Origin: an uncultured Candidatus Saccharimonadales bacterium
GTDB lineage: Bacteria > Patescibacteriota > Saccharimonadia > UBA4664
DNA: 64,000 bases
Assembly (NCBI GenBank): GCA_964467655.1
Contig: CAYXSN010000003.1
Location: 34,714 to 98,713 of the forward strand
Reading direction: 5' to 3'
The position numbers were made by a program, and so were the translations under genes. The notes beneath the pieces were generated by a model. That model was not told the DNA's origin. It made no database searches and saw only the letters and a program-made list of their open reading frames with translations. Shown in pieces: positions 44,040 through 63,247 of this stretch. Positions within the stretch are counted from its first letter, which is position 1. Each line of letters starts with the position of its first letter.

Positions 44040-44145
44040 ACCTGAAAACCTTGCTTTTCTCCTAAAATTTCTACTATAATAATGCAAAGACGTTCCTTAC
44101 GCCTACTAGTTTGTAGCCTAAATAATTTTTTGGAGAACCCCCGCC

Positions 44146-45096: not shown

Positions 45097-45174
45097 CGAC
45101 AGGTTGTCTCCTTACTATCGTTATGATATTCCAAGTTGGTCTTAGCGTAGCATATGCACAAGCGTAAGCGCAAA

Positions 45175-45498: not shown

Positions 45499-45522
45499 GA
45501 TAATCCTCGTTTCCTTGATACA

Positions 45523-46241: not shown

Positions 46242-49200
46242 ATGAAGTCGAGGTGGACTCTCATTGCGCTTATGGCGTGGGCCATTGTGGCACCAGCGCT
46301 CGTTGTTGTTATGCGTCCAGAAACCGCTCAAGCGGGAACACCAGCCTCCATCTTGCCGACCACATGTAACTGGACCAATACCACAACAATTACATGTAGT
46401 GGGTATCCTCAAGATGCCAGTCTAACTGTCACCTTTACACCCGACACGAGAAATCCATCAAACCCTCAACGCAGCTACAATGGCGGTACTGTCGGTACGC
46501 CAGGCGATGGAGGCACATACCAGTCTATTGAAAACGTCAGCGCCAACGGTACCAGTGGCCAATACACCGTCGATGGAACATCGCTCGGAGCCATCACGAT
46601 TGGTAATCAGGCAGCCTCAGGCCGGCCGGTCAACGCCGTCACGCCTGCCGATGCCAATGATGGTGCCGCCGATCCCGACACGGCCGTCAAATGTGACGCC
46701 GGCAAAGGCTTCACGTGGCTCATTTGCGGCACCATCGAGTGGGCCCTCAATGTGATCGATTGGATCAGAAACACCGTGCTCATCCCCATGCTCCAGCAAA
46801 AACCGTTCGACGAAGCTTCACCAGATATCGAAGCCCTCAAAAGCGTCTGGGCGGGCATGCGCAACATCGCCAGCATCGTTCTCATCCTGCTCTTCTTGCT
46901 TATTATCTTTGGGACGGCCATTGGCTACGACAACTACACCATCAAGAAAACCCTGCCCCGCCTAGTAGCCGGCGCCATCCTCATGCCATTGTCCTGGTAC
47001 ATCTGCGTCTTGCTGGTTGACCTCGGCAACATCCTAGGTGTCGGGCTCAAGGATTTAACGGCCCCCTTCATCCCTACACCGATCATTGATTTTAATTCAC
47101 CGATTTCCGAAGCTGTCTACAGCGTCGGTGGTGGTATTTTGCTCGGTGTCACTGGCTTTACCGCCTACACTGGCATGCTCTGGCCGGTATTGCTAGGCAT
47201 GGTCGTTGGCTTGGCCGGCGCCTTTCTCACCCTGGTACTGCGCAACATCTTGATTCTCGTCTTAACGGCCATTAGCCCTTTGGCAATGCTCGCCTACATA
47301 TTGCCCAATACCAAGAAATTCTATGACATGTGGCTGAGCAATTTCCTGCGCTTGATCCTCATGTTCCCTTTTATTATCTTGTTATTCCAAGCTGGCCGCC
47401 TATTTGCCGCCATCGCCGGAGCTGGCACCAATCCTATAAACACAATCTTTGCTCTTGTCGGACTGATGCTACCACTATTCTTAGTACCTTGGAGCTTTAA
47501 GACAGCTGGTCAAGCGTTGTCATTCGGTAGAGGCTACATCGATAAAGCTACTGGCATGGGCAAGCGGTACGGTTCAGACAAAATTGGCAACGCGATTAAG
47601 CGTCAGAGAGACAAAACCCGTGAAGCCAACAAAGCTCTTCGCCAGCATAACGCTATCCAGCGAGCAAAAGACATCGACAAAGAGGCCCCCACCAACCTCG
47701 GAGGTAAACTATCCAATAACGTCCGTCAACGAGTCGCCATGAAAAAAGCCGGGCATGGAGGCTTCCTTGGTGGCAAGGGTAATGTACTGCAGCAGCAAAA
47801 GTTTGAATCAGCGTACAGTGAAGCCGCCGCCACACAAGGCAAGATCGAGGCCGCCAAACTGGCTGGCGCTACCGGCACTAGCGAAACACACAAACAGCGC
47901 ATCGAAGCCGAAACCGCCATGGCACTCAAAGGCATTACCGACGGCCGGGCCAATCGTGCAGGATTCATGCAAGCTGTCGGCGAAGCCAATGGAGCCGAAC
48001 TTCCAGACAAAATGATCAGCTTCGCCCAGGCTAGTTACGCCGCCGGCACCGAATCCAGCCGTAAGAGCAATGCCAAGCTCCTCGGCACAGGAACCGGCGT
48101 TCAAGCCGCTGCCGCTGCGGGCGGTTTAGCTTCAACGGGGGCAATCGTCGCAGACGCCAGAGAAACCCAGATTGATAGCCTCAGTGACGAAAAAGGCCAG
48201 GTGGAAGGCCGCCTGATTGGTCAAAGGCACCTTGAGGACGTTGAACTCCAACGAACTGGCGTTAATCCGGCCACGGCAACGACGGCCCAAAGAGAAGCAG
48301 TCCAAAATAGGTTGCAACGCTATCGCCAAACCGATGCCCGCGTCAAAGCACGAGATACTGTACTTGAAGAAGGCGGGACCAAACGTCAGAGCCAAGCCGA
48401 TTTTACAACTCATGGATACCAAGATGTTGAGGAAGTTGAGGGTTCCGCTGCCCTCGAGCAACGTAGTAAGCTATCTACCACTCGCCAAGTCCGCCGCCAA
48501 CGCGTGGCCATCCAGGGTACAGCCGAGGGTGGCATGAGCGACGCAGATATTGAAATGGCGGCCAGTCGTGAAGCTCGCGAGAGCATTGGCGCCCAGGTCA
48601 TGAAGCAAAGGGTAGGCAACGAGACTGAGAGAGCCGACTTGGCTTCAGGTGACGCTACCCGTCGACCAACCCTCACCAACTCACTGATTGCCGCCCGAGG
48701 CCGGGCCGAAGAAAGCGCTTCCGCTGAGAGCGCCCAACGCACGGCCTACGTCAGATCTGCTCTTGGATACGAAAGCGAAAAACCATCTCGGCCATCGCTC
48801 GAAGAACGTATCCAAGATGCCTCTTTCAAAGCCACAACAGACCAGCGCACCAAAGACCTATCAGTCGGTGAGCGTCTCAGCGAAATCAGCAAGGCCGAAG
48901 ACCGGGTCCTTTTGAGCCAAAAAATCGATCCGGCTACCGCCTCAGCTGGTCAACGAGCCGATGCCAGGGCGAGCATTAGTGGCAAAATTGCCATCCAGGG
49001 CTCAGGGGAAGCCGGTTACAAAATGCGCATGGACATCGCCAAAGCCCGCGGCGAAGTCGAGGGCTTCGAAAAAGGCGTTAAGCAGCTCCAAATCGAAGAA
49101 ACTGCCAAGAACCTGCGCGAGAAAGCCATCGACGCCCATCTGGCTGCCAACACCGGCGCCACCAGAGCCGAAGCCGAAGAGGCTGTCGACAGCAATCCGG

Positions 49201-50633
49201 CCAACGATTTCAAGCGCGAGGCCGAACACAACGTTGAAGCTCTAGCCGCCGGCGCTCCGGCCCATCCCGATACTGTCACCTCGGACCAGGCCAGCCGCAT
49301 GTACCACGACGCTGGCGCCGAAAGCGCCTACACCTCAGCTGCCCAAGCCCAAGCCAATTCCATCGGCCAAGCCGTCGGTAAGGGACAGTCGGTCACAGCT
49401 GCGGTTGCTAACCGTGCGTCGACTAACCTCCTAGAGCTCGCCCGCGCCCACGGAGCAGCTCGTGGCATCACGAATGATGACCAAGCCATGGAGTCGTTCC
49501 TTGATGAACAAGTTCGCCTGACAGGCAGTGGCACGCCTGGTGTAGCCGCCGACCGCGAACAAGCCCGCCAGGCTTTACTCACGCAAATGGCCGCACAGGC
49601 TCAATCGGAAGTCATTTCTGCCGCTACGTTGGCAGGCATCGATAGCGGTGTCCGCAGTGAGGCAGCGGCCCAAGGACAACTTATCTCACAGGAAGAATCC
49701 TACAATTCGCCGACTAAATCCACAGCAGCTGATCAGCTAGAAATGGCTCGAAGAGACGCCAGTACAAACCTGGCCAGCAAAGAAGGAACCGACCAAGCCC
49801 GTTCACGCCAGCCCAAACTGGATTACTCGACAACAGTTGAGTCAACCAGGAAAGAAGCTCTTGACAAGTTCTTTGCTCAGAGAGTCCAAGAATCGGGCCG
49901 CAAATTCGTGATAGATGCCAACACCGGCAAACCAACTCCCGACCGAATCGATACTGCAGCGCCAACCAAAGATAACCAAGCCTCACTTCGTAAAATGGCA
50001 GAAGAAGCCTTCGACACGGGCGACTACGAGACCTTCGCAGCCTGCACCAATGCTTTGGGTCAAAACGGCAGTGGACGTGATATCGTCAGGGAGATTATTG
50101 AATCGAAGTTCGGATACGATGATAAGAACCGTATCAATCCTACCATCGCTGATCAGATCCGCAAAACAGCCAAAGCTAACGGCAACCCTGAATTCGACCC
50201 CGAATCATTCTTTAGTGCTGCAGTTTCGCGAATCAACAAAGATAAAGCACCATACTTATTTAAACCACGGGACGCCGCTTTTGGTAAACTACCTTCAAAT
50301 GAATTTGCGGCTCTCGATGACCGCGGCAAAATGCAGTACTTCCAGTGGGCAAGTGGCAAAGTTGGTACGACCGATGAAGCAAAGATCAGAGGTGAAGCCG
50401 TTTCCAATATGCACGAATCGGTCACCAACAAATCTCTCAAGCCCAATCCGGGCAACGCTGATTTTGATGCCATGTACCGCTACCTCTATGAGATTGATCC
50501 CACTACTAAGGCGGTTATAGGGCCAAATGCAGATAATATGAAGGCTTTTGAGGCACAATTTGGAGGGAATACTGTCAAATTCGGCCAAGCTATCGCCGAT
50601 ATTGAACGCGGCTTTAAATCACATAATGCCTAA
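46242..50633 (+). CDS. VirB6/TrbL/TraG-like polytopic membrane protein with a ~1000-aa Ala/Glu/Arg/Gln-rich C-terminal extension
   Basis: 1463 aa. N-terminal signal peptide, a Cys-containing ectodomain (~170 aa), 6-7 transmembrane helices (~aa 200-460), then a long charged low-complexity tail. Transcribed divergently from the pilin genes. Confidence 0.55.
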   Translation: MKSRWTLIALMAWAIVAPALVVVMRPETAQAGTPASILPTTCNWTNTTTITCSGYPQDASLTVTFTPDTRNPSNPQRSYNGGTVGTPGDGGTYQSIENVSANGTSGQYTVDGTSLGAITIGNQAASGRPVNAVTPADANDGAADPDTAVKCDAGKGFTWLICGTIEWALNVIDWIRNTVLIPMLQQKPFDEASPDIEALKSVWAGMRNIASIVLILLFLLIIFGTAIGYDNYTIKKTLPRLVAGAILMPLSWYICVLLVDLGNILGVGLKDLTAPFIPTPIIDFNSPISEAVYSVGGGILLGVTGFTAYTGMLWPVLLGMVVGLAGAFLTLVLRNILILVLTAISPLAMLAYILPNTKKFYDMWLSNFLRLILMFPFIILLFQAGRLFAAIAGAGTNPINTIFALVGLMLPLFLVPWSFKTAGQALSFGRGYIDKATGMGKRYGSDKIGNAIKRQRDKTREANKALRQHNAIQRAKDIDKEAPTNLGGKLSNNVRQRVAMKKAGHGGFLGGKGNVLQQQKFESAYSEAAATQGKIEAAKLAGATGTSETHKQRIEAETAMALKGITDGRANRAGFMQAVGEANGAELPDKMISFAQASYAAGTESSRKSNAKLLGTGTGVQAAAAAGGLASTGAIVADARETQIDSLSDEKGQVEGRLIGQRHLEDVELQRTGVNPATATTAQREAVQNRLQRYRQTDARVKARDTVLEEGGTKRQSQADFTTHGYQDVEEVEGSAALEQRSKLSTTRQVRRQRVAIQGTAEGGMSDADIEMAASREARESIGAQVMKQRVGNETERADLASGDATRRPTLTNSLIAARGRAEESASAESAQRTAYVRSALGYESEKPSRPSLEERIQDASFKATTDQRTKDLSVGERLSEISKAEDRVLLSQKIDPATASAGQRADARASISGKIAIQGSGEAGYKMRMDIAKARGEVEGFEKGVKQLQIEETAKNLREKAIDAHLAANTGATRAEAEEAVDSNPANDFKREAEHNVEALAAGAPAHPDTVTSDQASRMYHDAGAESAYTSAAQAQANSIGQAVGKGQSVTAAVANRASTNLLELARAHGAARGITNDDQAMESFLDEQVRLTGSGTPGVAADREQARQALLTQMAAQAQSEVISAATLAGIDSGVRSEAAAQGQLISQEESYNSPTKSTAADQLEMARRDASTNLASKEGTDQARSRQPKLDYSTTVESTRKEALDKFFAQRVQESGRKFVIDANTGKPTPDRIDTAAPTKDNQASLRKMAEEAFDTGDYETFAACTNALGQNGSGRDIVREIIESKFGYDDKNRINPTIADQIRKTAKANGNPEFDPESFFSAAVSRINKDKAPYLFKPRDAAFGKLPSNEFAALDDRGKMQYFQWASGKVGTTDEAKIRGEAVSNMHESVTNKSLKPNPGNADFDAMYRYLYEIDPTTKAVIGPNADNMKAFEAQFGGNTVKFGQAIADIERGFKSHNA

Positions 50634-50735
50634 TCAAAGGCTAGTCTAACCTTCCCTCAAGCCCCAATTTAGCGTAAGCTTTATATATCAACTGTGAGGG
50701 ATGATAGGGGATAGGCACGCCCCAGCACACGTGAT

Positions 50736-51560
50736 ATGGGACAATACACCGTACCGCAAAACGTTGAAGCCGAAGACCATATCTTAGGCCCGCTAACGTT
50801 CAGGCAGTTCATCTACATGATGATCGGCCTGGGCTGGGTGATTATTACCTTCGCCTTGTTCCGCAAACTGATTGCGGCCTTCATTGTCATTGGTGTGCCA
50901 CCGACCATTTTGTTCATGCTGCTAGCTTTCTTCAGACGCGACGGCCAGGACTTCGAGCATTTACTGGTAGCTGTGGTCGGCTTTTTTGCCGCTCCCCGCC
51001 AGCGCTTGTGGATCAAAGAAGAAACCATCGAAACCTTCCACATCACGCCCACAGCCAAACAGGCCGAAATCACCCAACGTAACCCACAGCTAGTCATCAG
51101 TGAACTCGAGAAGTTGGCCGTGCTCATTGACTCCCGGGGCTGGAACCTGCCGACTGCCCCCGAGGTCACGCCTCAGCTCATCATGCCCAGCACACCGGCC
51201 TCGGCCCGCATCGTCCAGCCAGACAATACTCCCTCAAACATCACCGCTCCCCACACCGACATGCTCGACCTCCAAAACAGCCCGCTGGCCCAAAACCTCT
51301 CGGTGCTGCTCCAACAGTCAGCCGACCATGTCAAGCAGTCGGCGGTCAGCGGCATGACACCGGGTAGTGAACTACCCGCACCGACTCATTTTGCCACGCC
51401 CGTCAAAAGCATAAGCGGCGTGACAGGCCTCGCCCAAGACGATATACTACGGTTAGCTACCCAGAGTGAGGGAATGAGCATTGCCTCTGTTGCGGCCCAA
51501 GCCACGCGCTTGAGCCCAGACAGTGGCGCAAATGTGGAGCCAGTTGCCAATGCCAGCTAA
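50736..51560 (+). CDS. Small membrane protein (two N-terminal transmembrane helices; VirB3/PrgI-like position) with a Pro/Ser-rich tail
   Basis: FIYMMIGLGWVIITFALF and FIVIGVPPTILFMLLAFF helices lie directly upstream of the VirB4 ORFs. The VirB3 assignment rests on position only. Confidence 0.4.
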   Translation: MGQYTVPQNVEAEDHILGPLTFRQFIYMMIGLGWVIITFALFRKLIAAFIVIGVPPTILFMLLAFFRRDGQDFEHLLVAVVGFFAAPRQRLWIKEETIETFHITPTAKQAEITQRNPQLVISELEKLAVLIDSRGWNLPTAPEVTPQLIMPSTPASARIVQPDNTPSNITAPHTDMLDLQNSPLAQNLSVLLQQSADHVKQSAVSGMTPGSELPAPTHFATPVKSISGVTGLAQDDILRLATQSEGMSIASVAAQATRLSPDSGANVEPVANAS

Positions 51561-52284
51561 TTCAGCCAGCAAAACCGGGAAAAGCACCCAACAAACGCTT
51601 TTGATTTCCGAAATCAAAGATGGCGTGGTAGTTTTGCGTGACGGCTCCATTAGAGGCGTCATCCTCGGGAGTGCCATCAACTTTGAGCTCATGAGCAGTC
51701 AGGAGCAACAAGGCATCGAGATGGCCTACCAGAGCTTCCTCAACTCACTTCATTTCCCAATCCAAATTGTCATTCGTTCAGAACGCATCGACCTGTCAGC
51801 CTACATCGACAGGATGCAAGCCAAGCGCACCGAGCAATCAAACGAGTTGTTGGGTGCCCTCATGGACGATTACATCGCCAATGTTAAATCGCTGGTCGAT
51901 GAGGTCAACATTATGGACAAGCAGATCTACATTGTGGTGCCATATTTCCCCGATGTAGCCACAGGCAAATCACCGGCGCTCGTCAAAAACATCAAAAATG
52001 CATATAGCACCCCACCAGACATTACGATCACCGAAGAAGAATTCAAGGCCTACAAACAAGAATTGTCAGAACGGATGGCCTTGGTCTCGAGCGGCCTCGG
52101 CCAGATCGGCATCAGGGCGCTGGCACTTGGCACCCAAGAACTAGTCGATCTCTACTATACCTGGTACAACCCCGACATCGCCCACAACCAGAAGCTGATT
52201 GAAGCCGAGCAGCTCACGGCTCCCGTGGTCCTCAAAGGCGACGGCCGAGCACCCCACACCACCATTGAGGGAGGTCCTTTCTGA
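51523..52284 (+). CDS. VirB4/TrbE-family N-terminal domain, encoded as a separate ORF
   Basis: LLISEIKDGVVVLRDGSIRGVILGSAINFELMS...GIEMAYQSFLNSLHFPIQIVIRS matches the VirB4 N-terminal region. Its stop overlaps the next start (TGATG). Confidence 0.55.
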   Translation: MAQMWSQLPMPANSASKTGKSTQQTLLISEIKDGVVVLRDGSIRGVILGSAINFELMSSQEQQGIEMAYQSFLNSLHFPIQIVIRSERIDLSAYIDRMQAKRTEQSNELLGALMDDYIANVKSLVDEVNIMDKQIYIVVPYFPDVATGKSPALVKNIKNAYSTPPDITITEEEFKAYKQELSERMALVSSGLGQIGIRALALGTQELVDLYYTWYNPDIAHNQKLIEAEQLTAPVVLKGDGRAPHTTIEGGPF

Positions 52285-54173
52285 TGGGACTTTTTGGCCC
52301 ACCCAAACCCAAAGTTGATCCTGGGGCTCTGGCTGCCTACCAGCAAGCTATGGAGCAACGCGAGGCCGAGCTCATTTACCGCCAAGGCATCATCACCATG
52401 CGCGACCTCATTGCGCCTTCGTCATTGGAGATCGACGCCAATTACCTGAGGATTGGCAAACGCTATTGCAAGACGCTCTACGTGTATGGCTACCCCCGCC
52501 AGGTGTTCACCGGTTGGCTGTCGCCAATTATCAACCTCGATGAAATCATCGACATCTCACTTTACATCTACCCCGTGGAATCGCGCGTCGTTCTCGACAA
52601 CTTACGCAAAAAAGTCACCCAGATGGAAGCTTCGTATGCCATCAACGAAGAGAAAGGCAAAGTGCGCGACCCAGGCCTTGAAGCCGCGCTCCAGGACGCC
52701 GAAGAGCTCAGGGACAAGCTCCAAGTTGGCGAAGAGCGGTTCTTCAGGTTTGGTATGTATCTCACGATGTACGCCGATTCCATTGACGCCATGACCGATC
52801 TCAACCGCAAAATCGAGGGCATTTTCGGCCAGTCGCTGGTGTACACCAAAGCCGCCACCATGCAGATGGAGCAAGGCTTCAACTCCACGAGTCCCTTGGC
52901 CAACGACCAGCTCCAGATCTCGCGCAACATGGACACCGGAGCCCTGTCCACCAGCTTCCCGTTCACTTCAGCTGAACTATCTCGCAACGAAGGCATCCTT
53001 TACGGCCTCAACCGCCACAACAACGGCCTGGTGCTTTTCGACAGGTTCTCGCTCGAAAACGCCAACATGGTGGTATTCGCTAAATCCGGTGCCGGTAAAT
53101 CGTTTTCCATCAAACTTGAAGCCTTGCGCTCTCTCATGATGGGCATCGAAATTATCGTAATTGACCCCGAAAACGAGTACAAAACCCTCTGCGAAGCCGT
53201 TGGCGGCACCTATCTGCGCCTCAGTTTGGCCAGTCAAACTCGCATCAACCCCTTCGACCTGCCGCGAGTATTCGACCAAGATGAAGCCGACAACGCCCTC
53301 CAAGCCAACATTATTACACTGCACGGCCTGTTGCGCCTCATGATCGGTGGCGCCACAGTCTCAAACTCCACCGGCGCCACCAGCGTAACCTCCCTTACTC
53401 CCAGCGAAGACGCCGACCTCGATCTGGCAATCATCAATACCTACGCCCGCGCCGGTATCACCCGCGACCCCCTCACCCACAATGCCACCCCGCCCACCAT
53501 GAACGATCTCTACAATACTCTGGCCTCCATGACGGGCAACGGCCCCGACCTGGCCATGAGGCTACGCAAATTCACCACCGGCACGTTCTCGGGTATTTTT
53601 TCAGAGCAATCAAACGTCGAAATCAACAACCCCTTCCTGGTATTCAACATTCGCGACCTCGAAGACGAACTACGGCCCATCGGCATGTACATCGTGCTCA
53701 ACTACATCTGGAACAAGGTCAAATCAGATCGTCGCAAACGCATCCTAGTAGTCGACGAAGCCTGGCAACTTATGAAGTACGACGACTCAGCCGCCTTCAT
53801 GTTTAGCCTGGCCAAACGGGCCCGCAAATACTTCCTCGGCCTCACCACCATCTCCCAAGACGTCGAGGACTTCTTAAGCAACAAAATGGGCCGGGCCGTG
53901 GTCGCCAACTCATCACTCCAGCTCTTACTCAAGCAAGCCCCTTCAGCCGTCGACATTATTGGCGAAACCTTCAAGCTCACGAACGAAGAAAAAGCCAGGC
54001 TCACCGAATTCCCGGTGGGAGAAGGCTTATTCTTCGCTGGACTCAATCACGTCATCATCAGAGTCCTGGCGTCCGAAACCGAAGCCAGCCTCATTAGCAC
54101 CAATCCAGCCGACAAAGGTCAGGCGCCATCAGCCCCCACTGAAACATCAGCGCCAGCGGAACAAGGAGCATAA
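52284..54173 (+). CDS. virB4: Type IV secretion/conjugation ATPase VirB4 (TrbE/TraE/PrgJ-like), central and C-terminal ATPase region
   Basis: Walker A FAKSGAGKSFSIK and Walker B ILVVDEAWQLM. The VirB4 middle region (LIAPSSLEIDANYLRIGKRYCKTLYVYGYPRQVFTGWL) is also present. 629 aa. Confidence 0.88.
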   Translation: MGLFGPPKPKVDPGALAAYQQAMEQREAELIYRQGIITMRDLIAPSSLEIDANYLRIGKRYCKTLYVYGYPRQVFTGWLSPIINLDEIIDISLYIYPVESRVVLDNLRKKVTQMEASYAINEEKGKVRDPGLEAALQDAEELRDKLQVGEERFFRFGMYLTMYADSIDAMTDLNRKIEGIFGQSLVYTKAATMQMEQGFNSTSPLANDQLQISRNMDTGALSTSFPFTSAELSRNEGILYGLNRHNNGLVLFDRFSLENANMVVFAKSGAGKSFSIKLEALRSLMMGIEIIVIDPENEYKTLCEAVGGTYLRLSLASQTRINPFDLPRVFDQDEADNALQANIITLHGLLRLMIGGATVSNSTGATSVTSLTPSEDADLDLAIINTYARAGITRDPLTHNATPPTMNDLYNTLASMTGNGPDLAMRLRKFTTGTFSGIFSEQSNVEINNPFLVFNIRDLEDELRPIGMYIVLNYIWNKVKSDRRKRILVVDEAWQLMKYDDSAAFMFSLAKRARKYFLGLTTISQDVEDFLSNKMGRAVVANSSLQLLLKQAPSAVDIIGETFKLTNEEKARLTEFPVGEGLFFAGLNHVIIRVLASETEASLISTNPADKGQAPSAPTETSAPAEQGA

Positions 54174-54179
54174 GAGGAA

Positions 54180-57100
54180 ATGGCACTGCGTTCTGCCGCC
54201 GGTCTCAAATCTAGCTCCGGCATGGAGCCACCCCGCCAGACGTTCAAAGATGCTCTGGTAGCCCAGAAAGCTTCAAGTAGCCAGAAAACAACTACCGCCC
54301 AAAAGCCGGTTATGACGCAAATGTCACCGATGGGCGGCAGTCAAACCTCCAAGCCCGACACCATCACTAGACCCCGTAATGAATCAATCAACGAACCCAA
54401 TACGGCGTCCAATACCAGCATCGCACCTTCGTCTCAGGCCGCCGACCTCAAAACCGGAGATAGCAAATTCGATGCCGTCCACGGCGACAACCGCGGTCAG
54501 CAAATGGTCGCCAACGCCGGCACCGCCCGGCCCGAAGCCAATGACGACGCCTGGGCCTCACCCGACGCCACGGCATCCTCCAATGCTGGTGGCCCACCAG
54601 ACTCGGGTGGAAAAGCGGGCGTCATGTCTCCGGGCGCCGATCCAAACCGTGCCAGTCAATCTAGAATACCTGGCAATGATGCCGAGGCCCGAGCCAACTA
54701 CGCCAACAACGTCAGTAACGGCCCGGTCGGCCGCCGGATTGCCGGCAAGACGTTCGATTTTGCCAACCGTCACCGTAAATCGCTGATCTTTGGCGGCGGC
54801 GGCATGGGTATTGTCCTAGCGTTAATCTTTGCCACGCTTGCCTTCTTGCCCCTCAAACTTGAATCATTCATGAATAACGTTATCAGCAACGAAGGCAAGC
54901 GGATGGAGCATTACGCCACGCGGCGCGCCGAGATCATGACCTACCGCTACCTCATGAACGCCGCCAACGGCACTATTGAATCAGACCCTTTGTATACCAG
55001 CTCCAATATCGTCAGGATGATGTGGGGTAACTTCCAGAAAGACAGGTTTATCGAGAAACTCCAGACTTCCAAAGGCATCACAGTGGAAAGGGGTGGCAGC
55101 GCCGGCAGTATCAGATTCACGACCGCCAGTGGCCAAGTAGTGGAAGCGAGTAATCTGAGTCAGCTCATGGACGTCCTCAAAAGCAATCCAGCCGGTACTG
55201 GCATTGAGGCAGAAATTGGCAAGTTCATGGAAAACGAGTACAAATGGTTCCGTATCTTTCAGCGCCGCTCTATCAGATACTACTTAGCCAAAGCTTACGG
55301 TATCAAACGCTGGAGCATCGACAAAAAAGAAGACAAGGTTGACCCGAAGTCCAAGGTACACAGCACCGAAATCCAGGCGCGCGAACTGGCCCTCGATGGA
55401 CCAAATGAAAAAACCATCAATGCCATCGGTTGTGTCGCCGCACCCGAAAACTGCAACGGCGAAGACTCCAATCGCCGCAGTACCGACCCCAATGGCGAAT
55501 CAACAATCGACCCGCCAAATACCACTGGGGGCAATGAAGAAGAGTCCAAAGCTCAGGCCGAAGCCAAAAAAGGTTTGCTTGAGCGCTACCGCAACCTCAA
55601 AACTACTGCCGGCAACAAAATTCTAGCGACCCTCACCGAACTGATTGGTAGTGAAGTGATAGCGAAAGGTATTCTGAAAGCCGTACCCTTCATCGGCTGG
55701 ATCTCGTTTGCGGCCGACATCGACCATTTCATCTGGGGTGGTAGCTGGTCGCAAGTCGGCATCAATCTGCGCGCCTTGCAATACGTAAGCGTCGCCCAAA
55801 CCTGGGCTACCCTCAAAGACCAGATGAAGGCCGATGAGCTGACTGCCAGCCAAATCAATGTGCTTATGCTTATGCTCGACGGCATTGAAAAATCAAACGC
55901 TTTCCAGCGCACCAATTCAGCCAATACCAATGGCGGTGTCACCATCCCGGAAGAAAAACGGGTAGGCAGCGATGGTGCCTTTATCGATCCCGAACCGGCC
56001 GGTCAGGGTATTTGCGGCATTACCTATCCACTGTCAAACGAATACCGGGGCATCCCGGTAAACGGCTTGTCTATTACCAACTACGAACCCTGGACGCTCC
56101 TGTACCGTCGTGTAGTCACAACACCACTGCTGATTGGCGCCGGCAACGTTCACTTTGACCTCTGTACTTTCAGGGCCGTATTCCAGCGTTTTATGGGCGT
56201 CATCATGCTTGGGGTCAAGAACATTCCGGGTGTCGGGCAGTTTATCTCTACATTCCAGACCCTCACTCAGTTTGTTATGCAAACCGAAATCATTCAGCGC
56301 CTCGTCGAGCAGGGCAGCCACTACGTCACGGCCTTCCTCGAACGTGTCTTCGGACTGGTATACAACGGCGAATGGGGGGCGCCACTCGCCAACACCATTG
56401 ACGGTGGCTGGGAAGTAATCACAAATGCCGTCACCCGTGACCACATGGGTGGTAAGGCCATTAGCTATAGCCTCAGCTATGAACAAACCACCCAGTACGC
56501 TCTTGAGGACCAACAGAAACTCAATGCCGAGGGACCCTTTGCTAGTCTGCTCGCTTGGAATACGCCAGGCTCAACCGGCTCTAAACTACTGGCAGCCTTA
56601 CCATCAACCCCATCAGCTCTCGCCAACCGTTTTACCGATCTCGCCAGCAGCCTCTTTTTACACCCCGCCAGTTATTTCAGTAAATTAGCGTACAACTTTA
56701 GTACCGGTAGTCTGGCCGTCGATCCAGCCAGCTTGCGCTCTCCCGCAGGCGTCATGCACATTGGCTTTGATGCTGCCGAGGTCAACGACAGCAACATCTA
56801 CATTGCCGTCAAAGACATCAACGGACCACCAGTCAATGGCGCCTACCCCGGCCAGCCCGACGGCCGCATCGATGAGTACGACTGCATCGAAGGGAGCGGT
56901 AGTGGCGAGAGCTTGCACATAGTCGGTACTACTGACAGGGCCGATGACATCACCAAAACCAACCGCTGCCTCTACGATACCTCAGTGGCCCTACCGCTCT
57001 GCTCCGGCGGCTCCTCCAATGACGACGGGGGACTGGGCCAAGGCGGCGATCCCGGTCCATGTGGCCGTGTCGCTGGCACCTCAGCTACAGGCCAAGCCGG

Positions 57101-57977
57101 CAGCCCGCTCACCGCCAACTGGATGTCCGGCGCCAGCTTCATGCAGGGCGATTACAACGGTACACCCAAGACAACTGGTTTCGGCACGTGGCGTAACAGT
57201 TCACCGGTCACCATTGTGGGCACCTGGTGCGACAAGCCAGGCTGTACCGATGGATCCGCCGCCAATGATTACGACTCATTCAACGGCGCCATGGACATCG
57301 CCATCGGCGGCATCTTCAAACAAAACGGCGAATCCTGGTCGGCCGCCGCCGGCGGAGCCTACAATTCTCGTTGGCAAGGTGCCATCAGCAACATCGCCTC
57401 CCACCGCCAGGGTAAAGGCCTCACATTCATCAGGTTTGCTCACGAAGCCAATATGAACTTCTCAGACTGGAGCGTCATGCCGGGTGAAGAAGCCAACTAC
57501 ATTACTACTTTCTGCAACGTAGCCAACATGGCGCACGCCGCCGGTCTCAAGGTGACCTGGTCGCTCAATGACGGCACACTGGGCGGCGCTGCCGGCCCTG
57601 CCACCATGTATCCCGGTGACGCCTGCGTCGACGTCGTGGGACCCGACACCTACGACTGGGACACGCCTCAGGTATCGGTCGTAAATGGTCAGGTTACCGG
57701 TATCGAATCATGGCGCCAGTTTGCCCTAAGCCACAACAAGCCCCTAGCCTTCCCCGAATGGGGCGCCAACAACACCCAAGGCCAGACCAAAGATAACCCC
57801 GCCTACATCACCGCCATGAACACGTTCATGGCTACCAACGGCGGATCAGGCCCAGGCCAGTTCATCTATGACATCTATTTCAATGAAGACGAGAGTGGCT
57901 ACCGCATCGGATTATGGCCAACCGCCGATGTCCCGCAGATGGCTAACACCTATAAAGCTCTCAAGTGGGGGAATTAA
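54180..57977 (+). CDS. Large single-pass surface protein with a C-terminal glycoside-hydrolase-like (clan GH-A, GH26/GH5-like) TIM-barrel domain
   Basis: 1265 aa. Disordered N-terminal ~210 aa, transmembrane helix GGGGMGIVLALIFATLAFLPL, and a ~1000-aa exodomain. C-terminal FIRFAHEANM (candidate acid/base Glu) and LAFPEWG (candidate nucleophile Glu). Confidence 0.5.
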   Translation: MALRSAAGLKSSSGMEPPRQTFKDALVAQKASSSQKTTTAQKPVMTQMSPMGGSQTSKPDTITRPRNESINEPNTASNTSIAPSSQAADLKTGDSKFDAVHGDNRGQQMVANAGTARPEANDDAWASPDATASSNAGGPPDSGGKAGVMSPGADPNRASQSRIPGNDAEARANYANNVSNGPVGRRIAGKTFDFANRHRKSLIFGGGGMGIVLALIFATLAFLPLKLESFMNNVISNEGKRMEHYATRRAEIMTYRYLMNAANGTIESDPLYTSSNIVRMMWGNFQKDRFIEKLQTSKGITVERGGSAGSIRFTTASGQVVEASNLSQLMDVLKSNPAGTGIEAEIGKFMENEYKWFRIFQRRSIRYYLAKAYGIKRWSIDKKEDKVDPKSKVHSTEIQARELALDGPNEKTINAIGCVAAPENCNGEDSNRRSTDPNGESTIDPPNTTGGNEEESKAQAEAKKGLLERYRNLKTTAGNKILATLTELIGSEVIAKGILKAVPFIGWISFAADIDHFIWGGSWSQVGINLRALQYVSVAQTWATLKDQMKADELTASQINVLMLMLDGIEKSNAFQRTNSANTNGGVTIPEEKRVGSDGAFIDPEPAGQGICGITYPLSNEYRGIPVNGLSITNYEPWTLLYRRVVTTPLLIGAGNVHFDLCTFRAVFQRFMGVIMLGVKNIPGVGQFISTFQTLTQFVMQTEIIQRLVEQGSHYVTAFLERVFGLVYNGEWGAPLANTIDGGWEVITNAVTRDHMGGKAISYSLSYEQTTQYALEDQQKLNAEGPFASLLAWNTPGSTGSKLLAALPSTPSALANRFTDLASSLFLHPASYFSKLAYNFSTGSLAVDPASLRSPAGVMHIGFDAAEVNDSNIYIAVKDINGPPVNGAYPGQPDGRIDEYDCIEGSGSGESLHIVGTTDRADDITKTNRCLYDTSVALPLCSGGSSNDDGGLGQGGDPGPCGRVAGTSATGQAGSPLTANWMSGASFMQGDYNGTPKTTGFGTWRNSSPVTIVGTWCDKPGCTDGSAANDYDSFNGAMDIAIGGIFKQNGESWSAAAGGAYNSRWQGAISNIASHRQGKGLTFIRFAHEANMNFSDWSVMPGEEANYITTFCNVANMAHAAGLKVTWSLNDGTLGGAAGPATMYPGDACVDVVGPDTYDWDTPQVSVVNGQVTGIESWRQFALSHNKPLAFPEWGANNTQGQTKDNPAYITAMNTFMATNGGSGPGQFIYDIYFNEDESGYRIGLWPTADVPQMANTYKALKWGN

Positions 57978-59260
57978 TAACAGCCATGCTCAAGCGTTTT
58001 ACCACCATTCTCGTCCTCGCACTTACAGCACAGCTGGCGTTTGCCCCGACTGCTAAAGCCATTTTCAACTACGACAATAAAGCAGTTACCAAAGAATACA
58101 TCTATTGGGACAACCGGGTGACTGCCGATTGCCCCAGCGCCACCGACCTGTCAGGAAACAGTCCTACCGGCACCGATTCGGCGGCAGCCGCTGCCCGCAA
58201 GAAAGTTATTTGGGATTTTCTTACAGCTCCCGGCCGTCTGACAGCCCCTCAAGCTGCTGGGGTACTGGCCAATATGACAGTTGAAAGTGCCCATACTTTT
58301 GATCCAACGATTGTGCAGGGCGGTACCTATAAAGCCACGCCTGAAGGCGTGAATAACGGTTACGGCATCGTGCAATGGACTCCCGGCACCAAACTACTGA
58401 AATATGCCGACATTGCCGCAAACCCCACGCTCGGAGGCAACCTCACCCGCCAGCTGAACGTCCTATGGGACCAGCTAACCAATGCGAGCTCGCCGTTACC
58501 GGAAAAGGCTGCCGGCGACGCCCTCAAAGCCACCACTACAGCCGAGCAAGCTGCCGTAGCCTTTATGATCGGGTATGAGCGGCCGGCCGACAAGTCACTG
58601 GATGCCCGAGACGGCCGCGCAGCCTTAGCCAACCCCATCCTCGTCGAAATGACCGGCGGCACCAGTGGCACGATTACGCCTCTAACGACCACAAATGGCA
58701 CTCCCGTCACCACATCATCAAGCTGCCCGTCGGCTACATCCCAAGCCAGCGCTAGCATTGATACAGCCCATATGTTTGAGTCATCAGTGAGTATCCAATG
58801 TGCTCCCGGCACAACTGATGCCGGCGTTCAAGACGGCTACCACAATGGTATCATGGTCAAGATCAGGGTCTGCGCCATACCAAACTTTCCATGCACCAAT
58901 GAAGAATGCCAGGAACTCGGCAATGGTCATGCCCTAGTGAACTCCCGAGCCTCTGGCGCAATCCTCAAGATGATTACCGACGCCATAGCTGCCCGTGATC
59001 AAGCAGGTAAGAGTTATCAGATCAACGCGTCATCAACCTTCCGTACTATGGCCCACCAGACAGCCCTCTATAATGCGCCTCACTCCGATCCAGTTGCCAA
59101 ACCCGGCTTCTCCAATCACCAGATGGGCCTAGCGATCGATTTCGGCTTCTGGAAAAATACCAATACCGGACTCTATGATTGGCTCAAAGCCAACGCCTCG
59201 CGATATGGCTACCAGCAACTGCCAAGTGAAGTTTGGCACTGGTCCACCAATGGTGGTTAA
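57965..59260 (+). CDS. Secreted bifunctional cell-wall hydrolase: phage-tail-lysozyme-like domain plus peptidase-M15 (VanY/D-Ala-D-Ala carboxypeptidase-like) domain
   Basis: Signal peptide MLKRFTTILVLALTAQLAFAPTAKA. N-terminal domain ANMTVESAHTFDP...GYGIVQWTPG. C-terminal domain SNHQMGLAIDF (SxHxxGxAxD) plus EVWHW (ExxH). Confidence 0.7.
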   Translation: MGELITAMLKRFTTILVLALTAQLAFAPTAKAIFNYDNKAVTKEYIYWDNRVTADCPSATDLSGNSPTGTDSAAAAARKKVIWDFLTAPGRLTAPQAAGVLANMTVESAHTFDPTIVQGGTYKATPEGVNNGYGIVQWTPGTKLLKYADIAANPTLGGNLTRQLNVLWDQLTNASSPLPEKAAGDALKATTTAEQAAVAFMIGYERPADKSLDARDGRAALANPILVEMTGGTSGTITPLTTTNGTPVTTSSSCPSATSQASASIDTAHMFESSVSIQCAPGTTDAGVQDGYHNGIMVKIRVCAIPNFPCTNEECQELGNGHALVNSRASGAILKMITDAIAARDQAGKSYQINASSTFRTMAHQTALYNAPHSDPVAKPGFSNHQMGLAIDFGFWKNTNTGLYDWLKANASRYGYQQLPSEVWHWSTNGG

Positions 59261-59287
59261 AATAATAACTCAATAGGAAGTACCCCA

Positions 59288-60775
59288 ATGCGCCTAAAAC
59301 TTATCCTCCTAGCCCTCGGCATTACGATACTAGCTGCCAGTGCCAGCCTCTGGAACTATTCAAGGATTCAAATGAGCGTGCCCAACATCTCTGGTGAGTA
59401 CACCATCACCCTAGAGAACCAAGCCGATGGCAAAGCCACCGTCACCAAGACTAGCTCCAAGTCTTTCAGCAAAATCGTCAGCAAAGGCTCCTACCGGGTC
59501 ATTGTGACCCAGGGCCAAAACTCCCGCTTCTTTCTCATTGATACAGCTCCGTTTTTGGCGACCACCAGCGTCACCGCCGAGCTTCAGACCCAGATCGCCC
59601 GCAGTTACATCGGCAACAGCCCCGGGGACTGCTTTTACCTAATCGCCAATGTTGCCCTTTCCAGCACTTGTACCGGTAGTCAGAGCCACATGACGTTACA
59701 CACACCAGCCACGGCCACCCAAGCCAGCTACAACCAGGATTACATCACCATCAGAGGCCGGTTCATGGACAGTCTCGAAACCGCCGGCGGCACAATAGTG
59801 TTGAGCCAGTCCATTGGTGATAGCGGTCCGCTGCTGCATCTGTTTACCGGTAAACTCGAACCCGCCAAATCAACTGAACTTTCAGGTCTGAAAGCCGGTG
59901 TTGAGTATCGCTTAAGCAATTATAAAGCTGGCTTTTTAGTCCATAACTTTGATTTTTCGGACGTCCAGTACTATTCGGCCTTCGGTGCCGCTGCTCAAAG
60001 CGTCACGTTTGAGGCTGCTCAAACCAAAGCATCCAAGCCCTCGGCAGTAGCCACCAACAACCAAGCGACAGCTGTAGCCTATTTCTCTGAGCGTTCCGAA
60101 GAAGACCAAGGCAAAAATATCACTGAAATCGTCTTGTCGACTCCCGGCAAAGCCACCCAGCATTTTACCACCCAAGGCCATATCACCAAACTCATGTTCT
60201 GCTCAACCCAAACTCTGTGCGCCCTCAACAGCTTGGGCAGTAGCCTGCAAGTTTACAAGCTTGAGGACAAGGGGATAGACAACGATTTTGACATCAAAGA
60301 TGTTTCAGATTTCTTACTCTATCAGAACCAGATTGTGGCCGCCCAAGGCAAAAGTGTTTACCGCATTAATCCTGATGACCAATCAGGCTTCCAAGAATAC
60401 AGCTTTGGTGCCTATAACTTCTGCGGCTTCAGCCCCGCACCCAACGGCTACGTACTCTGCATCGCTGGCGCCAAAAACGGCCGGGCGCTCCTGAGACTTG
60501 ATGAAACAGCCGCCATCATCAACTCGGGTGCCATCGACCAGCAGTTAGCAAGCCTAAGTACCAAAACCGACATCATTAACCAGATCAGCGCCTACGGCCG
60601 GTTTATCACGGTAGTCCCCAAAGGTGACCTCATCATGAACTGGACCGCCCGCCGCCTTGAGCCAGACCCCGTAAAACAAGCCACCATCAACGGTCAAATC
60701 AATGCCACCATCAACGAACTTGGTATTGATAGAAGCAAGTACCAGATTTCAATTACCGCACCTCTCGGTGATTAA
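59288..60775 (+). CDS. Secreted hypothetical protein (495 aa) at the distal end of the T4SS-like cluster
   Basis: Signal peptide MRLKLILLALGITILAASASL. Composition looks beta-strand-rich. No known motif. Confidence 0.5.
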   Translation: MRLKLILLALGITILAASASLWNYSRIQMSVPNISGEYTITLENQADGKATVTKTSSKSFSKIVSKGSYRVIVTQGQNSRFFLIDTAPFLATTSVTAELQTQIARSYIGNSPGDCFYLIANVALSSTCTGSQSHMTLHTPATATQASYNQDYITIRGRFMDSLETAGGTIVLSQSIGDSGPLLHLFTGKLEPAKSTELSGLKAGVEYRLSNYKAGFLVHNFDFSDVQYYSAFGAAAQSVTFEAAQTKASKPSAVATNNQATAVAYFSERSEEDQGKNITEIVLSTPGKATQHFTTQGHITKLMFCSTQTLCALNSLGSSLQVYKLEDKGIDNDFDIKDVSDFLLYQNQIVAAQGKSVYRINPDDQSGFQEYSFGAYNFCGFSPAPNGYVLCIAGAKNGRALLRLDETAAIINSGAIDQQLASLSTKTDIINQISAYGRFITVVPKGDLIMNWTARRLEPDPVKQATINGQINATINELGIDRSKYQISITAPLGD

Positions 60776-60786
60776 AACTGACGCCC

Positions 60787-61083
60787 CTAAATCGAGCTGA
60801 TCGTAATCATTACCCTCACGCGCCCCGGCTGGCCAGGTACAGGGGTAGGGGAGCCACTCGTCTTCAAACCAGCCAGAGCCACCAGCTCCAGCTGACGCAT
60901 CCGCAACGCTCCAGCTACAGCCGCACTTGACGTCACGAGTCTTAAAGTTCCCTGGTGCCACTGACGGGCCCTCACTTTACCCGGATACCATTCATCCACC
61001 ACCTTTTGAACCACTTCCAACACATCCTGGCGGTCAAGCCCTAATTGCTGACGCTTGTGTTCAAAATAAGCCGGATCTATCAT
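60787..61083 (-). CDS. DUF721/DciA-like small protein downstream of recF
   Basis: 98 aa in the conserved dnaA-dnaN-recF-DUF721 position. Overlaps the recF stop by 4 bp. The sequence match is weak (KRQQLGL...LVTSSAAVAGALRMRQLEL). Confidence 0.45.
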   Translation of the reverse strand: MIDPAYFEHKRQQLGLDRQDVLEVVQKVVDEWYPGKVRARQWHQGTLRLVTSSAAVAGALRMRQLELVALAGLKTSGSPTPVPGQPGRVRVMITISSI

Positions 61084-62141
61084 ACTTCACCAGTCCAGAT
61101 CGTAGCGTGATCAGTCCTAAATTCCCTGGTCACGGCATCAGCATCGGTAGTCGTAATCACGGTCTGGTATCCTCCTAATCTATCAAGCAAATAAGCTCGT
61201 CGCTGTTTATCGAGCTCGCTAAAAACATCATCAAGCAAGAGGAGGGGACGCACCCCGGTCTGAGCCTGGGCATAGGCCAATTCAGCCAGCTTCAAAGCCA
61301 ACACCACAGTCCGAACTTCACCACGTGATGCCACATTGACGACTTCGCCGGTTTTAAATTTGGCACCAAAGTCTTCACGGTGGGGTCCGATAGTGGTAAA
61401 GCCGGCTGCAAAATCTCTATCCAATTGCCGCTCCAGTACCGTCAAAAAATCAGCTTCGTAATCACCCGATATGCTCGGTTGATACTCCAAAGCCACAGCC
61501 ACAGCCTCGCCAGCAATCTCCCGGTATAACTCGGGCAATTTACTGTTCACAATTTCTAGGTAACGCTGGCGCTTTTTGCAGATATCAACTGCCAACTCCG
61601 CTAGTTTAACGTTCCAAGCAAACAGTTGGTCGCGGGGTGGCAACGACCACTTCTTGGCATCAAGTAGAGCATTGCGCTGCTTGAGTACTCGCCGGTACTG
61701 CATGAGGGCCACCAAATAGAGTCGATCGGTCTGACAGAGCACAAAATCAAGGTACCGCCGCCGGCCTTCTGGAGGACCCTGAAGCATACCCAATTCAGTT
61801 GGTTCAAACAACGTCACCTGCAACCGGCCGATATGAGCGGCCAGCGTCCGCTTCAGACCGTCATGGGTCACTTTTTTGGTCACACCACCACTAAAACTGG
61901 CAGCCAAAGCCATCTCCATTTCACCCCCCGCCACCAACCGGTAAAAATCAGCCCCATGATGAACCACATCCCGATCGCGAGCCCGAAAGCTTTTGGTGGA
62001 AGCCAACACGTAAAGTGCCTCCAATAGGTTCGTTTTACCAGTAGCATTCGGCCCCACCACCAGAGTTACTTCGGGATGCAATTCAAATTTGGCGGCCGCA
62101 TACGACCTGAAGTTCGCCAGCTCCAGTTGGGAGATGATCAC
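61080..62141 (-). CDS. recF: DNA replication and repair protein RecF
   Basis: Walker A VVGPNATGKTNLLEAL and C-terminal signature/Walker B LLLLDDVFSELD. 353 aa. Confidence 0.92.
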   Translation of the reverse strand: MIISQLELANFRSYAAAKFELHPEVTLVVGPNATGKTNLLEALYVLASTKSFRARDRDVVHHGADFYRLVAGGEMEMALAASFSGGVTKKVTHDGLKRTLAAHIGRLQVTLFEPTELGMLQGPPEGRRRYLDFVLCQTDRLYLVALMQYRRVLKQRNALLDAKKWSLPPRDQLFAWNVKLAELAVDICKKRQRYLEIVNSKLPELYREIAGEAVAVALEYQPSISGDYEADFLTVLERQLDRDFAAGFTTIGPHREDFGAKFKTGEVVNVASRGEVRTVVLALKLAELAYAQAQTGVRPLLLLDDVFSELDKQRRAYLLDRLGGYQTVITTTDADAVTREFRTDHATIWTGEV

Positions 62142-63247
62142 GTGCGCAGCGGCATAATGATGTGCAGGTAATCATCGGCCGCCTCCTCGCCAGCTGGAGA
62201 CAGTACGCAGGCCTTGTCCTTACCGCTCGTCGCAAACATGACGGTCGAGGTCTTCATGACGGCTAGGGCGTCGGTAAGATACCGGGCATTGAGCGACACC
62301 ACGGCATCATCACCACTTACTTCGCAATCGGCCGCCGAAGTATTGCCACCCACCTCTGAATCACCGCTCATCACCCGCACCTGACCCTCTGCTTGAATCT
62401 CGAGCTTCACACTACCGGCACTTTCCCGCGCAAACAAGCTGGCCACTTTAGTGATTCTCGTAAACTCACTCACTTCAATCTCAAACGAAGTCTCAGCCTG
62501 CTCAGGTAAAATACCACGATAAGGAGGAAACTGCCCCTCAATCAACCGTGACACCAACTCGATATCACCCAGCCGCCACATGACCTGGTTTTCATCCATG
62601 TATAATTCAACAGGCTCAGTAACATCAGCCAATAATCTCATTAGCTCCTGCATAGTCCGAGCCGGCACAATTACTTTGAGCTCTTCTTGAGGCGACTTCT
62701 CCAACGGCATCCGTTTTTCGGCCAGGCGGTACGAATCGGTCGCCACCAGATATAAATTGTCGTCCTCGGTATACAAATACACACCAGCCAACACCGGCCT
62801 GGCTTCATCCGCTGAAGCCGCTACCACTACCTGCACCAAGGCTTCCCGCAGCGCTGCCGCTTCTACAGTAAGTACCGGATCAGCTGTGATAGTGGGGATT
62901 TCAGGAAATTCCTCAGCCGCAATTCCGTTAATCTTCGATTCATAATTAGGTGCCTTCACCACTAAGACAGCGTCTTCAGCCATGAGCTCGATAGTGCCAT
63001 GAGGCAGACTCGAGACAAACTCACTCACAAGCCTAGCTGGCACCGTGACGGCTCCTTGCTCTTCTACCTTGGAGCCTACCCAATAGTTAATACCGATCTC
63101 AAGATTGGTCGCCGACAACCTCAAACGATTACCATCAGTTGCCAGTAAAACGTGTGACAGTACCGGCAGACTGGCTCTCGTTGATACTACCCGGCCGACG
63201 CTTGACAGAGCTTTGGACAAGTTCTCTTGTGTGAGGCTAAGTCTCAT
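62138..63247 (-). CDS. dnaN: DNA polymerase III beta sliding clamp
   Basis: 369 aa with three-domain clamp layout. N-terminus MRLSLTQENLSKALSSVGRVVSTRASLPVLSHVLL. Overlaps recF by 4 bp. Confidence 0.9.
   Translation of the reverse strand: MRLSLTQENLSKALSSVGRVVSTRASLPVLSHVLLATDGNRLRLSATNLEIGINYWVGSKVEEQGAVTVPARLVSEFVSSLPHGTIELMAEDAVLVVKAPNYESKINGIAAEEFPEIPTITADPVLTVEAAALREALVQVVVAASADEARPVLAGVYLYTEDDNLYLVATDSYRLAEKRMPLEKSPQEELKVIVPARTMQELMRLLADVTEPVELYMDENQVMWRLGDIELVSRLIEGQFPPYRGILPEQAETSFEIEVSEFTRITKVASLFARESAGSVKLEIQAEGQVRVMSGDSEVGGNTSAADCEVSGDDAVVSLNARYLTDALAVMKTSTVMFATSGKDKACVLSPAGEEAADDYLHIIMPLRT

Follow-up and report, generated by a model that had tools for sequence, protein, structure and literature searches.

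A putative lysozyme and M15B peptidase fusion protein in the type IV secretion locus of a Saccharimonadia bacterium: a probable wall-opening component

The stretch of DNA analysed here, referred to as the window, comprises 64,000 nucleotides (nt) from an uncultured Candidatus Saccharimonadales bacterium (assembly GCA_964467655.1, contig CAYXSN010000003.1, positions 34,714 to 98,713). The gene under study encodes a predicted exported cell wall hydrolase of two domains, and by sequence its neighbours are a full monoderm-type type IV secretion system (T4SS) cluster. As listed in Table 1, pilin, VirB6-like, PrgI and VirB4 genes are found around it, which bears out the placement in a T4SS-like cluster made by the first-pass annotation, an earlier reading of the bare sequence. 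The same annotation had quoted four motifs from the open reading frame (ORF) at 57965..59260, and all of them are present, far beyond chance: TVESAHTFDP at amino acids (aa) 105–114, GYGIVQWTPG at 132–141, SNHQMGLAIDF at 383–393 and EVWHW at 422–426. An identical 328-aa fragment (P0001) occurs on an independent Joint Genome Institute metagenome contig, so the hydrolase sequence is not an assembly oddity.

The gene probably starts at an ATG codon rather than at the GTG of the mechanical ORF listing. The upstream gene ends with a TAA codon at 57975–57977, followed by a second TAA, and between the first of these stops and the in-frame ATG at 57986 there are 8 nt. This ATG is preferred because translation from it yields a canonical Sec signal peptide (MLKR-FTTILVLALTAQLAFA-PTAKA/IF) and an N terminus that lines up with those of homologues, such as P0010 ('MITKRF...'). 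A 13-bp overlap with the upstream gene, and with it co-translation, had been proposed; the figure is arithmetically correct for the GTG start only, and with the likelier ATG start there would be no overlap. The close coupling holds, as under either start the two genes are tightly linked (a gap of at most 8 nt) and very probably co-transcribed. The signal peptide, which was also part of the earlier description, was recovered by a hydropathy scan as an N-terminal hydrophobic stretch; a similar basic-hydrophobic leader is present in all aligned homologues, and it appears as a low-confidence helix at the N terminus of the AlphaFold2 model.

Table 1. Features of the hydrolase gene and of the surrounding T4SS locus. 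Coordinates are positions in the window; residues of the hydrolase are numbered from the GTG codon unless stated otherwise.
Feature	Coordinates	Strand	Basis and remarks
Hydrolase ORF as listed	57965..59260	+	Mechanical ORF listing; GTG start, 431 codons/431 aa
Hydrolase ORF, probable true extent	57986..59260	+	ATG start, 424 aa
Predicted Sec signal peptide MLKRFTTILVLALTAQLAFAPTAKA	57986..58060	+	Hydropathy scan; aa 8–32, A-K-A cleavage motif
gp13-type lysozyme domain, PF18013	58199..58621	+	Pfam; aa 79–219; Glu107 codon 58283–58285
Disordered linker rich in Thr/Ser/Gly	58640..58750	+	Predicted local distance difference test (pLDDT) <50, composition; aa 226–262
C-terminal M15B (VanY/LdcB-like) zinc peptidase with Cys-rich beta-hairpin extension	58757..59257	+	Pfam, PDB, Foldseek
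M15B motif codons	Arg360 59042–59044; SNHQMGLAIDF 59111–59143; EVWHW 59228–59242	+	Sequence
Partner protein, 1265 aa, positional equivalent of SEML1_0007	54180..57977	+	Gene order, transmembrane scan
GH26 glycosidase domain at the C-terminal end of the partner protein	~56979–57977	+	Homologue and profile searches
VirB4-like ATPase	52284..54173	+	Pfam P-loop_TraG (E=7e-26), AAA_10, DUF87
Conserved 253-aa T4SS protein, TraC-like, equivalent to SEML1_0009	51523..52284	+	Synteny; PF26593 on the L002 orthologue
PrgI (VirB3-like)	50736..51560	+	PF12666 (E=5e-13)
VirB6/TrbL-like polytopic membrane protein, 1463 aa	46242..50633	+	Many transmembrane helices; resembles TrbL_3 proteins (L002 and others)
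Four VirB2-like pilin genes	45834–46211, 45523–45837, 45175–45498, 44653–45096	-	PF18895 (E=2e-8 to 2e-12 each)
Hsp20 gene next to the pilins	44146–44580	+	Same placement in S. epibionticum (SEML1_0014–0020)
Phosphoribosyltransferase and double-zinc-ribbon protein after Hsp20	43371–44087	-	
Downstream 495-aa protein with N-terminal membrane anchor	59288..60775	+	Transmembrane helix; weak transthyretin-like match
recF and dnaN, marking the replication-origin region	61080..63247	-	Pfam

The N-terminal domain was assigned by Pfam to PF18013 (Phage_lysozyme2) with E=3e-24 and a score of 86.2 bits (cut-off 28.2), in agreement with its earlier description as a domain of the phage tail lysozyme type. 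In sequence it matches gp13 of phage phi29 (PDB 3csr; E=1.5e-8, ~27% identity), and Glu107 in 'TVES' aligns with the gp13 residue Glu45 in 'SES'. This glutamate, the putative catalytic residue, is invariant in 20 of 20 diverse homologues and in 33 of 33 Saccharibacterial proteins, as are the GxGxxQWTP and YER motifs. The AlphaFold2 model, which was built from a 31-sequence alignment and has a mean pLDDT of 79, predicts a lysozyme fold for this domain (pLDDT mostly 80–94), and a Foldseek comparison of the predicted model with 3csr gave E=1.5e-5, a probability of 1.0 and a template modelling score, TM(target), of 0.68. Two cysteines, Cys56 and Cys254, flank the domain and show 90% or higher conservation in the set of 33 Saccharibacterial proteins.

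For the C-terminal domain, the first-pass annotation had named M15 peptidase motifs and the families PF02557 and PF13539. PF02557 (VanY) was matched at aa 347–417 with E=1.6e-8 and a score of 34.8 bits (cut-off 25), and so, like PF18013, was found above its threshold; PF13539 fell below threshold on this protein (15.4 bits against 25). VanY and LdcB chains also match the domain in a PDB sequence search. The motifs S383-x-H385-x-x-G-x-A-x-D392 and E422-x-x-H425, together with Arg360, are conserved in all 13 aligned homologues; the ExxH motif was checked in a separate homologue alignment because the phmmer alignments to PDB VanY chains end before it. Going by the VanX/VanY literature, we take the H-x6-D pair and the distal histidine (His385, Asp392 and His425) to be the zinc triad and Glu422 of ExxH to be the catalytic glutamate. 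The N-terminal region is assigned to PF18013, and the M15 zinc triad is intact.

The predicted structure of this domain has the Hedgehog/DD-peptidase fold and matches Bacillus anthracis LdcB (BaLdcB, 4mph) with a Foldseek probability of 1.0 and a TM(target) of 0.48; gp13 and 4mph were the only strong matches of the model in the PDB. The identity of the domain as a VanY or LdcB equivalog in NCBIfam was rejected (18–30 bits against cut-offs of 275–425), and for this reason the domain is treated as a member of the family and not as an orthologue of VanY or LdcB. It shares with these MEROPS M15B enzymes the fold, the zinc triad, the catalytic glutamate and a score above the Pfam VanY threshold, and unlike them it carries a Cys-rich beta-hairpin extension at its N-terminal side and is fused to a lysozyme. 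Four cysteines (Cys279, Cys303, Cys310 and Cys315) lie in this extension, ahead of the M15B core; these and the Cys56/Cys254 pair may form extracellular disulfides.

In the AlphaFold2 model the two domains are confident and separate (residues ~60–225 and 258–424 of the 424-aa form), with a disordered Thr/Ser linker between them. The overall design resembles that of phi29 gp13 (3csq/3csr), which likewise has an N-terminal PF18013 lysozyme with its glutamate, a linker and a C-terminal LAS zinc peptidase; the gp13 peptidase, however, is of the M23 (LytM-like) family and not M15B, and gp13 is a virion protein that lacks a signal peptide. On the strength of the model, the window protein would be an exported lysozyme and LAS metallopeptidase that follows the gp13 plan with M15B in place of M23.

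The position of the gene within its cluster is shared with a cultured relative. In Southlakia epibionticum ML1 the published order runs dnaA, dnaN, recF, SEML1_0004/0005 (exported prealbumin-like/PEGA proteins), 0006, 0007 and 0008 (VirB4), and onward through 0009, PrgI (0010), VirB6-like proteins (0011 and 0013), pilins (0014–0019) and Hsp20 (0020) (PMC10633639). The cluster in the window is colinear with this T4SS, SEML1_0004–0020. SEML1_0006, a 643-aa protein with a glucosaminidase domain (PF01832), PF18013 and a cysteine peptidase (Wang et al. 2023, PMC10633639), can be likened to the window protein by its published domains and gene order: both have PF18013, stand at the same gene position and come from the same class. 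They differ in length and composition, with three domains in SEML1_0006 against PF18013 and M15B in the 424–431 aa of the window protein. SEML1_0007 (1113 aa) ends in a Hedgehog/DD-peptidase (M15B-like) domain (PMC10633639), so that in S. epibionticum the M15B-like domain lies on the upstream protein; in the window the upstream protein ends in GH26. Transposon sequencing (Tn-seq) placed both SEML1_0006 and SEML1_0007 in the essential (ES) class (PMC10633639; summarised in PMC12102498), and a second PF18013 protein of this organism, SEML1_0667, which lies outside the T4SS cluster, was non-essential by the same method (PMC10633639).

A wider set of loci was obtained by a search with six closer sequences in one genome per prokaryotic species; 199 encoded relatives were confirmed and the best 80 loci were kept. 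About half of these best 80 are from metagenome-assembled genomes (MAGs) of Candidatus Saccharibacteria/Saccharimonadia and the rest mostly from Kribbella and other Actinomycetota. Among the Saccharibacteria/Patescibacteria loci, 34 have a VirB4 as well as a match to PF18013, and in all 34 the order is VirB4, one large protein (502–1540 aa) and then the PF18013 protein, with two large ORFs standing in between in L051. The VirB6-like, PrgI and 253-aa proteins are found upstream, and recF-dnaN downstream, wherever the flank of the locus reaches that far. PF18013 itself was found in 33 of 33 proteins scanned (from 32 of the 34 loci, plus the window). The window VirB4 is 59–85% identical to the VirB4 proteins of the Saccharibacteria loci, and the closest loci (L059, L011, L015 and L007, all from Saccharimonadia MAGs) have VirB4 proteins 82–85% identical and DnaN proteins 70–75% identical to those of the window, which assigns the window to that class as well. 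In one locus, L025, the 10 kb to either side of the PF18013 match contain neither T4SS genes nor recF/dnaN, and the match may be a paralogue from outside the T4SS; in L013, L014 and L035 recF/dnaN lie downstream and the upstream flank is probably just lacking.

Around this fixed position the wall-degrading modules vary widely. In the 33 PF18013 proteins the partner domains are M23 (7 proteins), GH3 and GDSL esterase (5 each), VanY, C39_2-like and NlpC/P60 (4 each), M15_4 (3), GH43 and CHAP (2 each), and Amidase_3 and a BD-FAE esterase (1 each). Even the four closest relatives differ from each other in architecture: L007 encodes GH3-PF18013-VanY, L059 PF18013-GH3-M23, L015 PF18013-C39_2-like and L011 PF18013 with an unassigned tail, alongside the PF18013-VanY protein of the window. 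The C terminus of the upstream large protein carries VanY in nine loci, M23 in three, Amidase_2 in two, and GDSL, beta-lactamase-like and Exo_endo_phos domains once each; nothing was recognisable in the others. The VanY module is found on either of the two genes that follow virB4, depending on the genome. In close relatives the lysozyme domain is 33–44% identical and the large protein 20–25% where similarity is detectable, which makes these the fastest-evolving parts of the cluster.

In the window, the partner protein encoded immediately upstream of the hydrolase has a low-complexity, disordered N terminus, a single transmembrane helix at aa ~205–228 and a large external part. Whole-protein Pfam scans of this protein, and of the 1463-aa and 495-aa neighbours, gave no match, and its GH26 domain was detected only by way of the isolated C terminus (weakly), a homologue search and a profile. 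The homologue search linked it to proteins bearing PF02156 (E=6e-45 to 1e-30), the profile matched GH26 enzymes in the PDB (E=2.4e-12), and both catalytic glutamates (in FAHE... and PEWG) are invariant in the alignment. Two relatives of this domain have a named source; both are secreted actinobacterial proteins, one from Kineosporiaceae and one from Modestobacter marinus (phylum Actinomycetota; 33–38% identity). By tblastn, GH26 was found in no other Saccharibacteria locus of the set, and the sole match was in L083, a Mycobacteriales MAG.

Relatives of the PF18013 domain are also encoded on 23 plasmids, of which 16 are conjugative. In the transfer operon of the Lactococcus plasmid pMRC01, genes for CagC (VirB2-like), TrsD, a VirB4-like ATPase and a transmembrane protein are followed by one for a 385-aa 'phage tail tip lysozyme', after which come a VirD4-like protein and TrbL. 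The 385-aa protein combines PF18013 (E=1.7e-38) with an NlpC/P60-CHAP domain, and in the lysozyme domain it shares 33% identity with the window protein (E=7e-11). A comparable order is seen in L083 (4784–12763), which encodes an AAA_10 VirB4-like protein, a 591-aa protein, a 709-aa PF18013+NlpC/P60 protein and an FtsK-SpoIIIE protein. The succession of VirB4, transmembrane protein and PF18013 hydrolase in the window is therefore shared with the conjugation machines of monoderm bacteria, in keeping with published work that traces the T4SS of Patescibacteria to the mating pair formation (MPF) class MPF-FATA. Kinship of the Saccharibacterial cluster with conjugative elements of Actinomycetota is indicated as well. 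The L083 hydrolase has an N-terminal part that resembles the window GH26 domain. Some 40 of the kept loci belong to Kribbella and other Actinomycetota and encode PF18013 proteins, and the one Kribbella locus examined (L030, Kribbella sp. NBC_00889, 9785–11534) has a PF18013 protein followed by a PEGA-domain protein, a pair also seen in S. epibionticum.

The first-pass annotation had compared the hydrolase with VirB1, TcpG and PrgK, and this comparison is strengthened by the finding that its lysozyme domain is homologous to that of one subclass of conjugative hydrolases, the pMRC01 type. The pMRC01 protein at the TrsG position, pIP501 TraG, pCF10 PrgK, pCW3 TcpG and ICEBs1 CwlT are all, like the window protein, encoded beside VirB4, exported or membrane-anchored, and bifunctional, with a glycan-cutting and a peptide-cutting activity, both predicted for the window protein; the PF18013 domain is what the pMRC01 hydrolase in particular shares with it. 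Classic monoderm T4SS hydrolases include muramidases of the CwlT type joined to CHAP or NlpC/P60 domains. The window protein, in which Pfam finds only PF18013 and VanY, has neither these peptidases nor the SLT/lytic transglycosylase domain with which CHAP or NlpC/P60 is classically combined (PMC12102498). The T4SS of the window also differs from conjugative systems in that no relaxase or coupling protein is in view and in that it is chromosomal and, to judge from S. epibionticum, essential, and not part of a mobile element.

Taken together, the domain identity, the catalytic residues, the predicted folds, the export signal, the T4SS context and the synteny support, at the level of sequence and model, a hydrolase that belongs to the secretion system. 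Our preferred reading, to which we assign a probability of about 75%, is that the protein is the dedicated, VirB1-like wall-opening component of the chromosomal, origin-proximal T4SS of this Saccharimonadia bacterium. The protein would be exported by the Sec pathway and its signal peptide cleaved; the lysozyme domain would cut glycan strands with Glu107 as the general acid, and the M15B domain (zinc ligands His385, Asp392 and His425; base Glu422) would cut peptide stems or cross-links, with the flexible Thr/Ser linker allowing both domains to act on one and the same area of wall. It would open a local gap in the wall jointly with the 1265-aa protein, which is anchored in the membrane and bears GH26, and the gap would let the VirB4/VirB6/PrgI channel and the VirB2-like pilus assemble and extend to the host cell. 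The enzymatic specificities in this scheme, and the choice of wall to be cut (that of the epibiont, that of the host, or both), are presumptive.

Several observations weigh against this assignment. Essentiality by Tn-seq does not establish that the protein acts in T4SS assembly, and the Sec signal means that the tie to the T4SS is drawn only from gene context. The bond cleaved by the M15B domain is likewise not set by its family, since at 30 bits against 275–425 the sequence lies far below the equivalog cut-offs. Finally, it is not obvious why opening the epibiont's own wall should require the variable partner domains or glycosidases that do not act on peptidoglycan, namely GH26 in the window and GH43 in other genomes.

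The last of these points leads to the alternative that survives best, namely that the enzyme acts mainly on the host and, with the GH26 protein, drills through the thick actinobacterial envelope at the contact site, which would give the T4SS pilus or channel access to the host membrane; in its extreme form the enzyme would be a lytic weapon. This reading overlaps with a role in assembly and differs only in the wall that is targeted, and we consider it a real possibility, although not the expected one. It would account for a PF18013 core that is joined to very different partner domains, to the extent that the four closest relatives all differ, and for a lysozyme domain that is only 33–44% identical where VirB4 is 82–85% and DnaN 70–75% identical, as is typical of proteins that interact with a host. 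Peptidoglycan is the substrate of neither GH26 nor GH43 enzymes, and the named relatives of the GH26 domain come from Actinomycetota, the host phylum of the cultured Saccharibacteria. The prototype of the lysozyme domain, phi29 gp13, reportedly cuts its target wall from the outside at the tip of a tube. On the other side, no recognisable immunity gene adjoins the hydrolase gene, the usual view of the homologues on conjugative plasmids is that they attack the donor wall first, and the variety of partners could equally reflect differences between the walls of the epibionts themselves or neutral shuffling. A bolder version, in which the PF18013 hydrolase and the upstream membrane protein make up an 'envelope drill' that re-assorts rapidly and is directed at the host and not at the epibiont, is put forward tentatively and is rather doubtful; under it, a conserved lysozyme core appears to have been re-equipped from genome to genome with peptidases, esterases and glycosidases, some of them apparently captured from Actinomycetota. 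Were the enzymes indeed to act on the host, the essential T4SS would physically penetrate the host envelope, and the set of domains at the locus would reflect, and might predict, the host wall chemistry of each Saccharibacterium.

It is very unlikely that the protein is a housekeeping autolysin or a stem-trimming carboxypeptidase for growth and division that lies beside the T4SS by accident. Enzymes of the VanY/LdcB family are usually stem-trimming carboxypeptidases, and SEML1_0667 shows that PF18013 is not restricted to the T4SS. Against this, the position directly after virB4 and the gene for the large transmembrane protein is kept in each of the 34 loci, as it is in S. epibionticum and in the operon of a conjugative plasmid, the upstream stop codon lies 8 nt from the hydrolase start or overlaps it, and in S. 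epibionticum the PF18013 copy of the T4SS is essential while SEML1_0667 is not; the invariant synteny and this contrast between paralogues led us to reject the housekeeping explanation. An origin as a prophage tail lysin remnant, suggested by the names 'phage tail lysozyme' (Pfam) and 'phage tail tip lysozyme' (NCBI), was rejected as less probable still: the N-terminal domain has relatives in 61 phage records at 28–37% identity, including phi29-like 'morphogenesis proteins' and Staphylococcus phage tail lysins, but every neighbour in the window is a T4SS or replication gene, neither phage structural genes nor an integrase or attachment sites were seen at the borders of the locus, nor was its absence from related genomes observed, and the closest relatives are T4SS-cluster proteins of Saccharibacteria from a chromosomal locus conserved across the class.

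As a presumed T4SS component, the hydrolase is of a described kind, since homologues of lysozymes and peptidases encoded after virB4 have already been noted in S. epibionticum, with the proposal that such proteins may replace VirB1 (Quinonero-Coronel et al. 2025, PMC12102498). VirB1-like components are listed for this system in a 2025 T4SS review, and surveys with hidden Markov models found VirB1 homologues not to be well associated with virB4 in most classes of Patescibacteria (PMC12102498). A 2024 perspective in PNAS called the role of the Saccharibacteria T4SS 'completely unknown' (PMC11665869), and neither it nor the Mycosynbacter/Gordonia paper mentions T4SS-linked hydrolases. To this are added here a likely corrected start codon, the finding that every Saccharibacterial T4SS locus examined encodes PF18013 at this position, homology to the equivalently placed conjugative hydrolase of the pMRC01 type, and the shuffling of wall-degrading modules, including GH26 on the partner protein. 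The T4SS is essential for the parasitic growth of Saccharibacteria, hence the interest of a hydrolase at this position; the shuffled domains and GH26 offer testable handles on which envelope is cut and may bear on host range.

The pilin array (44653–46211) runs divergently from the VirB6-like gene, and the small plus-strand ORFs upstream of the latter gave no pilin matches. Beyond Hsp20 lies a protein with both a phosphoribosyltransferase and a double-zinc-ribbon domain, a pairing known from ComF-type competence proteins. On the other side of the hydrolase, the 495-aa protein has homologues (25–31% identity) after the hydrolase gene in 11 loci and stands where S. epibionticum has the exported PEGA/prealbumin-like proteins SEML1_0005/0004. 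The GC skew is strongly and uniformly negative across the window (1–64000; -0.07 to -0.22), with recF/dnaN at the right end, from which it follows that the plus strand would be on the lagging side and that the long T4SS operon (46242–60775, plus strand) would run head-on to replication. The orientation of the T4SS relative to dnaA-dnaN-recF is the same in S. epibionticum and in L002.

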